Positions 1-53,620 of a DNA stretch of 64,000 nucleotides are shown here, one piece after another (the first letter of the stretch is position 1; each line of letters begins with the position of its first letter). Made by a program: the position numbers and the translations under genes. The stretch comes from a virus, in IMG/VR virus record IMGVR_UViG_3300018420_000012, positions 27,944 through 91,943 of that record; one strand, 5' to 3'. A model generated the notes under the pieces. It made no database searches. It was not told the origin of the DNA and worked only from the letters and a program-made list of their open reading frames with translations.

Positions 1-393
1 CTTTTTGGTGCCGATGATGGTGGACTTGCTATTTATGATAGCGATGGAACTACTTCTGGTATACTTCAGTGTGGAGCAATTAAAACCCCCATCCAGTCAA
101 ATACAGACGGAGCCACTGTGACTTTTGACATGGATGTTTCTAATCTTCATACCGTAACACTAGCTGGCAATAGAACGTTGGCCGTTTCAAATGTAGATGG
201 TGGACAGAGATTTATTATTAGATTAGCTCAGGATAACACTGGAATCAGAACAATAACTTGGTGGTCAAATATTAATTGGCCCGGAGGGTTAGAACCAATC
301 CTTACCAATACACCAAACGCTGTTGACGTTTTTGGGTTTATAGCTACCGCTGGTGGCAATTATGACGGTTTTGTTATAGGATACGATTTATAA
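1..393 (+). CDS. 5'-truncated tail fibre/virion protein, C-terminal beta-sandwich domain
   Basis: Frame +1 is open from base 1 to TAA at 391-393. The C-terminus (TVTLAGNRTL...QDNTGIRTITW...WPGG..P.LT....AVDVFGF) resembles a common phage fibre-tip domain. Confidence 0.65.
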   Translation, partial: LFGADDGGLAIYDSDGTTSGILQCGAIKTPIQSNTDGATVTFDMDVSNLHTVTLAGNRTLAVSNVDGGQRFIIRLAQDNTGIRTITWWSNINWPGGLEPILTNTPNAVDVFGFIATAGGNYDGFVIGYDL

Positions 394-920
394 TGGCTTG
401 GAACACTCACCCTCATCCACCACCAACTTATTATACTAACTCAGTAATGCCATCGGCTGAAATTAGACAATTAGGATTTCCATTATATCAAACCTCTGAC
501 ATTGTAACGCCCGCTTCTGGACGGCCCGACATTGACGGAATATGGTATATGGATGATTGCACCGGTTCTGGGCCGATTTATGATATTTGGATAAGTGGCT
601 CAATGAATTCGTCTGGTATATTTCTCATAAGGCCCGGCGATAGCATTATAGCTGGTGAGGATACTGACTCCATCGAGGGAGGTGCAGTTAGTTGGTACAG
701 ATATGACGTTACACAGATATTGCAGTCTGGGTCTATTACCGATACTCAATCTAGCGGACAATTTCGTGTAAAATATATTACTGACACATTAAGTGTTGGA
801 GATCAAGACCCATGTTCACTATATCATACATATGTTGAAGATGGTTACGGGTATGCACCAAGCGTACAGATAACACAAATTTATAGACAGATGAATACTA
901 GTTTTTTATTAGGAGAATAA
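393..920 (+). CDS. Hypothetical virion-associated protein (SG-rich)
   Basis: 175-aa ORF with TAATG overlap to the previous gene; 6 SG dipeptides; structural module context. Confidence 0.6.
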   Translation: MAWNTHPHPPPTYYTNSVMPSAEIRQLGFPLYQTSDIVTPASGRPDIDGIWYMDDCTGSGPIYDIWISGSMNSSGIFLIRPGDSIIAGEDTDSIEGGAVSWYRYDVTQILQSGSITDTQSSGQFRVKYITDTLSVGDQDPCSLYHTYVEDGYGYAPSVQITQIYRQMNTSFLLGE

Positions 921-921
921 C

Positions 922-1230
922 ATGGCACAATTTTCAATTGAAATTGCTGATGCTGATGTGGATAGAGTCCTTACAGCAATAGCAAAAAATTACAATAGGC
1001 CGGAACAGGTCTCGAATCCAGACTTTGATCCGGGTAGACCAGAAAACCCCGGAAATAATCCAAGGGATGTAGACAATCCAGAGACTACATATCAATTCGC
1101 AAATAGAATTGTGCGAGAATTTTTAGAAGCTAACTGTCAGGCGTATGAAATTAAAGAAGCGAAACGTGCCGCTGAAGATCAGGTTCGTGGCGGTAGCAAA
1201 CCAGTAATTAGAGACCCTCAACGTCCATAG
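922..1230 (+). CDS. Hypothetical protein with Asn-Pro-rich loop
   Basis: 102 aa, AGGAG SD upstream, NPDFDPGRPENPGNNP segment. Confidence 0.65.
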   Translation: MAQFSIEIADADVDRVLTAIAKNYNRPEQVSNPDFDPGRPENPGNNPRDVDNPETTYQFANRIVREFLEANCQAYEIKEAKRAAEDQVRGGSKPVIRDPQRP

Positions 1231-1237
1231 GTGAAAA

Positions 1238-51400: not shown

Positions 51401-52814
51401 TCACCATCAGTGGATGGGTGACTTTATTGATGCGTCAGCAGCTTATGGTATTATTGGTGCTACAACAACCGTAACCGTAAACGATAAGATTATTTTTACA
51501 ACAGATCAACGTTTTGGAATGAAAAGTTGGATGACTTACCGATTTGTGGGGTCAAATAATCTCGCTAATGACTTTAACCGAAGACCAGTATCAACTCAAT
51601 ACCCATCTTGGGGTGGTGAAAATTTAAAATGGGACGATCACAATACAACCACTTTGGCCGTAACCGTGTACCACCATTGGCCCAGAGAGCAGACAATTTA
51701 CGATCCTAGATTTTTCGCTGTTCACCACTTTAATCCAAGGCCAGACCTAGAAGGTTATTATACTTCGAGTATTCCTGTTGAGGGGGATGAACCCATCAGA
51801 CAAGGATCACCGTGGCCCTTTACAGAGACAGCGGTGTTTCAGAACACAGATGGTACGCAAATTGATTTCACATACCATACTGACCCCACAAATGTGGGTA
51901 TAAGAGAACCCTCACGTATAGTACAGGGTTCGGAGTTACCTGTACCAGTTACAGGATCATTTATTTTTAAGGATGGACTTTCCGATGGTACCGCACTTCT
52001 ACCAAAAGATAAATCTTATCTAAATGTTACTAGGGTTGGTAAATTACTTCCATACCAATATACTTATTATACCATTTCTACAGCATTTGCAAGTGGTGAT
52101 ATAATTAGTAGTGAAGACTTTAACTCAAAAAACCAGTCCCTAATTGGGTTCTTTTTTAATGGAGAAGAACAACCTTTTGAATACACTGTCGATGCACAGT
52201 TAGCCGGTTTAATATATTACTCTTCCTTGGGCACAAACGCACAACCCGGAGATGTTATTGGAAATTCAAGTCTTGGTATATTTTTCAGTGTAAGTGCTGT
52301 CGAGAATAATGACCCTGACAATCCTGAAGTTGTAACAGCCCTTGAGCTAGAGTGCTTTGGTGTTGGGCAAGATATTCCGTCATCTTCATTTGCTAAGTAC
52401 GGAGAGCCAATTAATTCTAGAATGAATGGTGTTCAACTTACAAATCTTGGAGGGTTTGGGAATGGGTTTAGTGGTAAGATTCTTGTCGGAAAAGTTCAGG
52501 GCTTTGAAGGAATAGACAACAAACCAAAAGCGGTCATTAGAGAGCAGCAGTTATCGCTACCGTCTGACAATACCAGCCCAGTAACCCTAGATGGTGGTTT
52601 TGCACAACCTTTCGGGTTCGTAAGGGGGGATTTGATAACAGAAATTCAATTAGCTGATAAAGACAAGTCAACGGATCGTAAGTATGATTGCTTCTTTTTG
52701 TTTAAAAATGATACATCGCATACGTTTTTTGACAATTATATCAAGGGGGAATCCGCCCTCAACGAAAGTTCTTCTGCTGAACAGTACATTAATCTGCTTA
52801 TAAGTGGAGAATAA
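48477..52814 (+). CDS. Large hypothetical tail-associated protein
   Basis: 1445 aa, AAGGAG SD and TAATG coupling. Confidence 0.5.
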   Translation: MFDLSEFLKAESNTHQFTTDNVYLNQVGLGVFTTGTFYSYWNAKDKNGNYVNRGVIRDRNGDEIERFGVFIGAQDESTSSNGPGNKDHDLDEASEKWGTWEGWRKTEYTGTYEEQRWSNWSLLERNMISAYTFDQVPLDYFAHSLTSEPNPPLNINNRAIFEDDNRDRFKIGVTEMADLKDRIGLDPAKAEETGYSDRRVFFNLPGSFPNPILSIITMNEFMIDAKKKLRRTGDNGWKTLDGDSAEDYITRNEIFAMDEYLKDMKTSKYKSIICSGLLTFNLQMAGGQFQCPKTEWVTFRLNLFDAPPKRAPKAEGVLKSLNTAQIKTDPTGRKYLSREDGDSTTPDENNPSHKTVAPVKLSYNPYLNKWESGTTSVLAKIATPVARAVFNPTISVLDDADIAQILYDKSEELHFAASSGLAMPIQMQNGNPFQWAPGYAENKDCRLEEKTKQKLTVFNFNPKKSFQVDDMVLLSQIDGIWHIVPLGEDQDQEEVVEPSFAGQWEFTYLATTEDFFQTVKQNNQYIKLDPRTAEKVAHSQYYQLVNKKNRGIDYPDSDFDMRPWGTGITPNAQYENLETFAGGHIQFSSFDFMDNNIFGRRNFNALGTTLANEDAKGRTIPFNSEETIDNPRHSIYFGCLFPDGYDEDYVAGYATGVKNFNITYHNSGALIANERLPGLLNLGSEFFGGVGANTDNINIDPFQEEQFRDSVGEVLYYPERHDYRAPTSDPIDSDNLTGTPWTGREVLTFGPSMFYQYNEELDRKLEHLPADIALNASPENPDGAPLYNLNRLNDFYNQASVSDWDFRTKIRDAFRQSTWLVKTSGVLVDSGNYNPADSALGIKPNKPGNIQFRPLKMELYNSYNTEYKKDDVEYSSQGNAVGFDIQDDRFGEKFWSCDAAVQMASQTPPHADGFGEASYDRYKRLNYDTHPEIYINEFEENGTSRQLRPRLAFNKYVERNKPYYRRHERHYWDEDHHQWMGDFIDASAAYGIIGATTTVTVNDKIIFTTDQRFGMKSWMTYRFVGSNNLANDFNRRPVSTQYPSWGGENLKWDDHNTTTLAVTVYHHWPREQTIYDPRFFAVHHFNPRPDLEGYYTSSIPVEGDEPIRQGSPWPFTETAVFQNTDGTQIDFTYHTDPTNVGIREPSRIVQGSELPVPVTGSFIFKDGLSDGTALLPKDKSYLNVTRVGKLLPYQYTYYTISTAFASGDIISSEDFNSKNQSLIGFFFNGEEQPFEYTVDAQLAGLIYYSSLGTNAQPGDVIGNSSLGIFFSVSAVENNDPDNPEVVTALELECFGVGQDIPSSSFAKYGEPINSRMNGVQLTNLGGFGNGFSGKILVGKVQGFEGIDNKPKAVIREQQLSLPSDNTSPVTLDGGFAQPFGFVRGDLITEIQLADKDKSTDRKYDCFFLFKNDTSHTFFDNYIKGESALNESSSAEQYINLLISGE

Positions 52815-52841
52815 CCTCTTAATCACTAAAAATAATAAAAA

Positions 52842-52853
52842 TTTGTGTATAAT
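52842..52853 (+). promoter_or_regulatory. Putative late promoter motif TTTGTGTATAAT (copy 3)
   Basis: Identical intergenic copy with an A-rich upstream tract, preceding a gene with an AAGGAG SD. Confidence 0.7.
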
Positions 52854-52879
52854 ACAGTAACCTCATAAGGAGAAACTAA

Positions 52880-53620
52880 ATGGCTACAATTACATTTCAT
52901 ACTAACGATTTTGGTGCTGCCGCCACTGATGATCCAACCCGTATTGACCATACAGAGGGGTCTGGATTAGGGTTTTTTGGTGGTTCTTTCGGCATTTCTG
53001 TGCCTGTCGGAGAGTATCAAGACGCTACATTTGTATGTAACTCCAATGGTACTGCATCTGGGGTTCAAGCGTCTAACACAAAATATATTAAAGATTTTCC
53101 GCAGGCTGGTAGCGGGATTACTTGGAATGGTGTTGATTACGGCACTTCCGGTGTTCCTAATTACGCAGCACCGCTAAATATTCGATTTACTCACGACGAG
53201 GGCGTTAGAGTTCAAAACTGTCGCTTGAGAATTTTCGACAGAAATAATATCGAAAATCATGCCAGTGGCGTTACTACTCAGGTTTATGAAGTTCGACACC
53301 CTCACGCTCTTACTGGCTATGATGCACTAAAAGGCAGCTTGGCTCATCGTGCCATTACTACTCACGAGTGGCAGACATACCTCCCCGGAACCAGTATGGT
53401 CGATATGGACCTTACAGCTGGTCCCGGCCCAAGCGGACTCAACACCGTTGCTGGTGAATCTTTGCCAGAATTAGACGGAATTTATAGAAACTGGATTTCG
53501 CAGTCTGGAGATGCTTGTCGTGCCACACGTCACGATTGGTATCTTTCTCTGAGTGCTTCACCAGACAACATTGGCAGCAAGACAGATTACGGCCTTTATT
53601 TTACTCTAGAATACCTGTAG
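52880..53620 (+). CDS. Probable abundant virion protein
   Basis: 246 aa, own promoter motif and strong SD; beta-rich; 7 SG. Confidence 0.55.
   Translation: MATITFHTNDFGAAATDDPTRIDHTEGSGLGFFGGSFGISVPVGEYQDATFVCNSNGTASGVQASNTKYIKDFPQAGSGITWNGVDYGTSGVPNYAAPLNIRFTHDEGVRVQNCRLRIFDRNNIENHASGVTTQVYEVRHPHALTGYDALKGSLAHRAITTHEWQTYLPGTSMVDMDLTAGPGPSGLNTVAGESLPELDGIYRNWISQSGDACRATRHDWYLSLSASPDNIGSKTDYGLYFTLEYL

Follow-up and report, generated by a model that had tools for sequence, protein, structure and literature searches.

Why do many virion proteins of one uncultured marine phage lineage contain serine followed by glycine (Ser-Gly, SG) far more often than their composition predicts, and could the dipeptide mark serines that receive sugars? 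The question arises from a 64,000-nucleotide stretch, here called the window, which is the last 64 kb of the 91.9-kb IMG/VR record IMGVR_UViG_3300018420_000012 (completeness 55% by CheckV). In the window, the tail part (half) of an extended structural operon is followed by a minus-strand cluster of glycan genes, within which the contig stops. The 28 kb upstream encode a sigma factor, a GDP-mannose 4,6-dehydratase (gmd), a ClpP-like protease, the terminase, the portal and the capsid protein; chaperone-like open reading frames (ORFs) accompany the protease in the morphogenesis operon. The original prediction for this locus held that SG is the acceptor sequon of the adjacent glycan cluster.

The SG enrichment is real, strong and conserved. 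Our preferred reading, to which sequence comparison leads us to assign a probability of about 45%, is that SG serves as an O-glycosylation acceptor motif on head-decoration, tail and fiber proteins. Three long relatives were compared with the window's own genome (G000): G001 (173.8 kb, rated complete), G002 (112 kb) and G003 (97 kb), the last being more distant, with a GC content of 37%.

Ser-Gly excess and its serine specificity

SG counts were compared with expectations derived from each protein's own composition and with per-protein shuffling. Pooled over the virion module, 384 SG pairs are observed against 201.7 expected (z = 12.8), making SG the single outlier among the 400 dipeptides (next z = 4.6). 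The original prediction had named GS, TG, AG and DG as controls, and only SG proves enriched: GS (220 observed/202 expected) and TG (137/161) are flat, as are AG and DG. Ser and Gly separated by one to three residues show no excess in the virion module, and PG is depleted there (42/78).

The excess is located in about 13 virion proteins, three of which (154, 538 and 463 aa) lie upstream of the window. In the shuffling test, the 1503-, 4186-, 334- and 207-aa proteins reach p <= 0.0005 and a further six reach p <= 0.01, with borderline values for the two tail proteins of 392 aa (p = 0.05) and 327 aa (p = 0.06). No SG excess is present in the major capsid protein (MCP; 0 SG), the portal, the tape measure protein (TMP), the 1672- and 1445-aa proteins or any of the enzymes. 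All of the dense SG counts first reported from the window were reproduced (65 in the 1503-aa, 10 each in the 207-, 334- and 574-aa, 8 in the 392-aa and 7 in the 246-aa protein). The 4186-aa protein, in which SG had been described as pervasive, has 104 pairs against 38.2 expected. The proteins described as poor in SG are near expectation (16, 8 and 9 in the TMP and the 1672- and 1445-aa proteins), with flat values in the enzymes. In control structural regions from T4, cyanophage S-RIM8 and HMO-2011, the pooled observed/expected (O/E) ratio for SG is 1.09-1.40, single large proteins reach at most 1.7-2.0, and large fiber-like proteins are at about 1.7. A mild SG bias is thus normal in phage structural proteins, but values of 2.4-4.9 are not.

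Extending the motif by one residue sharpens the signal. S-G-hydrophobic occurs 128 times in the enriched set against 34.4 expected (3.7-fold, z 17), whereas T-G-hydrophobic and A-G-hydrophobic fall to 0.36 and 0.59 of expectation. The same tripeptide is 2.1-3.0-fold enriched in the tail modules of the lineage (z 6 to 13), compared with 1.1-1.7-fold in controls and 1.10-fold in non-virion proteins of G001. There is no long flanking motif: the information around SG is at most 0.2 bit per position, with a weak preference for I/L at -3, A/P/V at -1, and V/I, then F/Y/L, after the Gly. Upstream of SG there is less Asp and Arg than expected, Asp being at 0.3-0.5 of expectation at -3 to -1; the tripeptide [S/T]-G-S is only weakly enriched (O/E 1.55). 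These patterns bear out the proposal that selection acts on the peptide in a subset of virion proteins, and add that it is specific for Ser and excludes Thr. As a separate observation, HH ranks second in enrichment among dipeptides (11 versus 3) in the 4186-aa protein and other SG-rich ORFs, and His is 2.3-2.6-fold enriched three to four residues ahead of SG, as in H-H-x-S-G.

Could the excess be a by-product of composition, codon-pair bias, restriction-site avoidance or internal repeats? Constraints on the DNA are indeed strong. CCWGG is avoided in all four genomes (0 sites versus ~75 expected in the window and 0 versus 231 in G001), GCGC is absent from G000 (0 versus 135) and G002 (0 versus 170), and G001 also lacks CAGCTG, CTGCAG and GGATCC; restriction-site avoidance is thus strong in the lineage. 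A-ending codons are shunned before GGN for every amino acid tested and in all protein classes, mostly at 2-8% versus 22-55% elsewhere, Leu being an exception in magnitude (20% versus 43%). In effect, AGG that would span a codon boundary is avoided. Although SG is hardly ever encoded with TCA or TCG, a DNA cause peculiar to SG was rejected, as the genome-wide avoidance of NNA and NNG before GGN hits every residue that precedes Gly. Such codon-pair bias is equal for all of these residues and in all proteins. Pro before Gly is encoded solely by CCC and CCG, the codons that CCWGG avoidance leaves, which explains the Pro-Gly depletion. CCWGG avoidance was also rejected as the source of the SG excess: the PG deficit of ~36 compares with an SG excess of ~180, at most a fifth, and G003 avoids CCWGG equally with little excess.

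Further, no site-avoidance rule generates S-G, the excess survives expectations built from composition and shuffling, and non-virion proteins of the same genomes lack it. Internal repeats or a shared domain were likewise discarded, since BLAST finds no repeats within the 4186-aa protein and only one fiber repeat family among the enriched proteins. At the SG sites themselves, Ser is encoded by TCT (40%), AGT (29%) and AGC (21%), and 35 of 298 conserved Ser residues change codon family between orthologs, in agreement with the earlier argument that use of both TCN and AGY speaks against a DNA motif. An origin as a by-product is thus largely refuted, and we regard it as very improbable.

Conservation and structural setting of the sites

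The SG excess is common to the G001 and G002 orthologs and weaker in G003. For the tail modules, z is 14 in G001, 13 in G002 and 4 in G003, compared with 1.3 for non-virion proteins of G001. In G003 the head-proximal proteins show no excess and the tail module keeps the weaker one; the top dipeptide outlier of this genome is TT (z 6.9), not SG.

The individual sites are retained to an unusual degree. In the enriched proteins, 77% of ortholog comparisons at 51-65% identity retain the SG pair intact. Other xG pairs lie at 30-50% (AG 47%, TG 38%, DG 35%, NG 30%), and SG in non-enriched proteins is at 21%. Viewed by protein, 72-100% of SG sites are kept in orthologs at 51-77% identity (50-70% in the 574-aa protein), and 72-81% in the 4186-aa protein at an ortholog identity of 51-58%. 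Retention of other Ser residues in the enriched proteins is 33-67% (38-46% for the 4186-aa protein). The TMP and the 1672-aa protein retain just 14-25% of their SG sites (21-25% in the TMP alone). The Ser of SG changes to Thr in 6% of comparisons.

Larger families show the same pattern. Among 50 aligned sequences of the 334-aa family, which extend down to 49% identity, S48-G49, S85-G86, S157-G158 and S181-G182 are invariant and three further SG pairs are at least 90% conserved. All 120 listed homologs of this protein contain 6-13 SG pairs versus 2-3 expected. Orthologs of the 246-aa protein exceed expectation in 11 of 11 further relatives (3-8 versus 1.5-3.5), one of them marginally, and proteins resembling the 1672- and 1445-aa products show no SG excess in any of the 11.

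To place the sites in a structural setting, we read their positions from the secondary-structure strings of an AlphaFold2 (AF2) model of the 334-aa protein. Its confidently predicted half contains seven SG pairs, all of them in loops and four within two residues of a strand end. A β-helix-like repeat of about 20 residues (V-x-I-G-x-x-A-G) is common to the 1503-aa fiber and the 620- and 892-aa proteins (window 11866-16377 and genome 26474-28336). SG occupies the loops of this repeat only in the 1503-aa fiber; the 620-aa paralog has the same repeat with other loop sequences. Other β-rich virion proteins of the phage (892, 747, 620 and 874 aa) have SG O/E values of 0.3-1.2.

Distant homologs keep the fold with other residues at these positions. 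Full-length homologs of the 154-aa head protein from five unrelated phages have NA, T[AGST], NG, TH or A[ASLP] at five alignable SG positions; one phage only has SG, at one position, and with identities of 27-32% single columns of this comparison are uncertain. A similar comparison of the 538-aa protein with cyanophage homologs is uninformative, a single SG site being within reach of the alignment. Where G003 has lost SG, the Gly is often kept, or turn pairs such as PD, DN, NK or PN are found.

Glycosylation genes of the lineage

The cluster at the end of the window encodes a GDP-fucose-synthase-like epimerase, a family 2 glycosyltransferase (GT2), a double nucleotidyltransferase, a HAD-like protein, a class II aldolase and a TylF methyltransferase. 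The complete genome G001 lacks the window's GT2, the genes for the 289-, 515-, 159- and 284-aa proteins, the aldolase and the TylF gene, and has different genes at that position. Its SG excess nevertheless persists, at unchanged SG sites, so the sequon-defining enzyme cannot be encoded in this cluster. G002 and one other relative have some of the cluster genes, and most of 11 related loci carry unrelated genes there. The adjacent cluster was accordingly rejected as the source of such an enzyme: it is not conserved among relatives while the SG sites stay. A link to the epimerase was also discarded, as 246-aa orthologs are equally SG-rich in two loci without an fcl-like gene. Of the proposed pairing of SG with the glycan genes at 56.6-64 kb, what stands is that the lineage carries glycosylation genes; the assignment to this cluster, variable and largely absent from G001, does not.

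Between the tail module and the cluster lies a quartet of genes shared by most or all relatives; each locus has three or four of them, and the 254-aa protein occurs in every relative. That protein looks like a fusion of a helix-turn-helix (HTH) domain and a Vsr/DUF559-type PD-(D/E)xK endonuclease (EVDGPSHF), and the 256-, 148- and 114-aa proteins gave no family match. The quartet was dismissed as a modifier of SG, none of the four being a glycosyltransferase.

Genes with a more stable association lie elsewhere. The gmd gene, also core to the lineage, is inside the sigma-terminase morphogenesis operon, a position conserved in G001, G002 and G003. In G001 and G003, a glycan island starts beside split DNA polymerase III alpha genes with three enzymes of glycosyltransferase family 4 (GT4; 562, 377 and 331 aa), followed by about 8-20 strain-variable glycan genes. 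The 562-aa GT4 is encoded in at least 199 contigs (67-100% identity for the best 80 of these). All 47 loci with full flanks contain it, at a median identity of 73%, above that of the neighboring DNA polymerase III pieces, and the 377- and 331-aa enzymes are each found in 45 of the 47. Every sufficiently long contig with the 246-aa tail gene also has the 562-aa GT4. An AF2 model of this enzyme (predicted local distance difference test score 82) has a GT-B fold whose best match is a chlorovirus GT4 (3oy2), followed by MshA and BshA. We infer that the window's own phage carries the trio as well. The core GT4 trio, plausibly together with gmd, would thus be a better candidate for SG modification than the adjacent cluster.

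Proposed glycosylation and its alternatives

Many unrelated proteins of one lineage have converged on one dipeptide and frozen it, which points to a shared, lineage-specific factor that acts in trans and reads the motif. If this factor is a glycosyltransferase, the recognized element would be S-G at a β-strand end, ideally with a hydrophobic residue after the Gly, and a soluble enzyme encoded by the lineage would O-glycosylate the Ser on folded or folding virion proteins in the infected cell. The core GT4 trio may be the modifier, with gmd and the variable island as suppliers of sugars, and the outcome would be a virion with hundreds of sugar-bearing loops that form a protective or adhesive coat. 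A more specific version, which we advance only tentatively, is that the trio primes hundreds of Ser-Gly(-hydrophobic) loops on head decorations, tail and fibers, on which the variable island builds strain-specific outer sugars as an O-antigen-like coat.

Several observations weigh against glycosylation. This contig, 55% complete, does not include the GT4 trio; G000 and G002 both end a few kilobases short of the expected position. G003 has the trio (43-52% identity), yet its SG O/E is only 1.2 overall and 1.4 in the tail module. All relatives examined carry glycosyltransferase genes, so co-occurrence offers no contrast with a genome lacking them. The acceptor of the candidate trio could instead be a lipid, a polysaccharide or DNA; with respect to the last, the total avoidance of restriction sites suggests that the phage DNA itself is unmodified. 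Searches for GT9/BAHT (PF01075) gave no match in G000 to G004, whereas control genomes do match; O-FucT (PF10250) likewise gave none in the lineage genomes, a result that is uninformative because the control genomes are also without a match. Phage structural proteins have a general mild SG excess of 1.1-1.7. Finally, glycan-shield sequons are usually gained and lost, and static, invariant sites are also what a structural role predicts.

That structural role would make SG an inherited idiom, a tight strand-to-loop turn kept by purifying selection for folding or trimer packing and left unmodified. The location of SG at strand ends and turns in the AF2 model agrees with it, as do the static and often invariant sites, the Gly or turn pairs that remain where G003 has lost SG, the hydrophobic flanks, which fit strand-turn-strand, and the mild excess general to phage structural proteins. 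CCWGG avoidance could also push PG turns toward SG, CCT to TCT being one change, but as described above the PG deficit is too small and G003 avoids the site just as strongly. A preference for Ser over Asp, Asn or Thr, moreover, does not follow from turn geometry: DG and NG, the usual turn formers, are neither enriched nor retained like SG, and T-G- and A-G-hydrophobic are depleted precisely where S-G-hydrophobic is enriched. The low SG values of the other β-rich virion proteins, and the paralog and distant homologs that keep the fold without SG, even with NA or TH in place of a Gly-containing pair, argue in the same direction. We regard such a structural origin as the main rival, somewhat less likely than glycosylation. 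The arguments for a trans-acting factor apply equally if S-G-hydrophobic is read by something other than a glycosyltransferase, such as an assembly chaperone, a ClpP-like protease or an enzyme that phosphorylates or acylates the Ser, and the morphogenesis operon does encode a ClpP-like protease and chaperone-like ORFs. Hundreds of cleavage sites within structural proteins are implausible, however, no kinase or acyltransferase candidate was seen in the lineage core, and the glycosylation genes are conspicuous, conserved candidates, which makes such a factor improbable.

Glycosylation of the SG serines would resemble several known systems in part. The nearest functional analogue would be TibC/AAH of the bacterial autotransporter heptosyltransferases (BAHT), a soluble cytoplasmic enzyme that places heptose on many Ser, but not Thr, residues in short loops of the β-helical TibA/AIDA-I; the mapped TibA site Ser-313 is in an N-S-G-G context (PMC4358343). 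At the level of sequence and model, the Ser-only pattern, the loop location and the SG in the β-helix-like repeat of the fiber would fit this precedent. The differences are that the five lineage genomes have no GT9 gene, the candidates being GT4 enzymes, and that many virion proteins of differing sequence take the place of one partner autotransporter. Mycobacteriophages, according to the summary of Freeman et al. 2023 in PMC12619734, place glycans at the C termini of capsid and tail-tube subunits by means of glycosyltransferases that they encode themselves, in a cluster that also contains a methyltransferase. The lineage likewise encodes glycosyltransferases (GT2 in the window, GT2 and GT4 in relatives) and a methyltransferase in the cluster, and its proposed virion targets would add to the likeness. 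Here, in contrast, SG is absent from the MCP, the final 40 residues of MCP and tube contain only two Ser/Thr each, and SG is spread evenly along many tail and fiber proteins.

Chloroviruses N-glycosylate their major capsid protein. They share with this lineage virus-encoded GT4-type and sugar-nucleotide enzymes, including GDP-mannose 4,6-dehydratase, and B736L of PBCV NY-2A (3oy2) is the best fold match of the 562-aa GT4; the capsid protein is the target there, whereas here it is without the motif. The original prediction had invoked proteoglycan xylosylation, which also has Ser-Gly as its minimal acceptor and leaves Thr unused. The analogy fails at the flanks: the eukaryotic sequon is flanked by acidic residues, while here Asp is depleted beside SG and the flanks are hydrophobic. 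No enzyme related to proteoglycan-type xylosylation turned up, although no search was aimed at one. The Bacteroidota O-glycosylation sequon D-(S/T)-(A/I/L/V/M/T) has an O/E of 0.81 in the SG-rich proteins. GtfA/GtfB, which glycosylate serine-rich-repeat adhesins, are GT4-type enzymes that act on long Ser-rich repeats; the GT4 enzymes of the relatives have only a weak profile match to Gtf1 (5e9t, E = 0.017), and the targets here are without Ser-rich repeats.

If the serines are glycosylated, a tailed phage would employ a dipeptide sequon over its whole virion. This would not be the oddity of one isolate: the lineage is abundant and common in aquatic metagenomes, as at least 597 IMG/VR contigs encode its capsid protein (84-98% identity for the best 80 of these). 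A strain-variable sugar coat on tail and fibers would matter for host recognition, for the stability of the virion and its adhesion to marine particles, and for evasion of grazers or defenses, and would account for the large glycan gene islands in many marine phages. A structural origin would instead make this an exceptionally clear example of a single turn motif that became fixed in many unrelated proteins of one lineage.

Coordinates and SG content of features in the window, and of related genes outside it; SG values are observed versus expected.
Feature	Coordinates	Strand	Remarks
175-aa virion ORF	393..920	+	SG 6 vs 1.9, enriched, shuffle p = 0.003
920-aa structural protein	4186..6948	+	SG 19 vs 11.2, moderate, p = 0.01; weak PHROG head-protein match
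334-aa fiber/tailspike-anchor-like protein	10845..11849	+	SG 10 vs 3.0; weak fold match to phiAB6 tailspike
1503-aa fiber	11866..16377	+	SG 65 vs 23.2; excess partly in loops of the β-helix-like repeat IGxxAGxxASGxx[DN]
327-aa and 392-aa tail proteins ("tube" of the original prediction)	17743..19964	+	SG 5 vs 2.2 and 8 vs 4.3, mild
TMP, 2044 aa	22381..28515	+	SG 16 vs 15.3, not enriched
4186-aa tail protein, FG-GAP repeats	28532..41092	+	SG 104 vs 38.2, along entire length
574-aa and 207-aa tail proteins	41092..43444	+	SG 10 vs 4.2 and 10 vs 2.0, both enriched
1672-aa and 1445-aa proteins	43459..52814	+	SG 8 vs 9.0 and 9 vs 7.5, not enriched
246-aa protein, last of tail module	52880..53620	+	SG 7 vs 2.2, enriched
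Conserved quartet (114, 256, 254, 148 aa)	53913..56222	-	No glycosyltransferase among them
254-aa protein of quartet	55015-55779	-	HTH-like N-terminal region and EVDGPSHF motif
Strain-variable glycan cluster	56622..64000	-	Contig end falls inside cluster
gmd (GDP-mannose 4,6-dehydratase)	L002:3275-4333, genome, upstream of window		E = 6e-111
Core GT4 trio (562, 377, 331 aa)	L089:12952-17369 = G001 92.9-97.4 kb; relatives' loci L120-L199		

Among cultured phages, neither the MCP nor the 207-aa protein found a match when used as tblastn queries against the phage collection, and megablast of window positions 1-25000 against the same collection also gave none. One homolog of the 334-aa protein (P0084) is an NCBI entry on a 43-kb contig assigned to a metagenome-assembled genome of Crocinitomicaceae (Bacteroidota), which hints weakly at the host.

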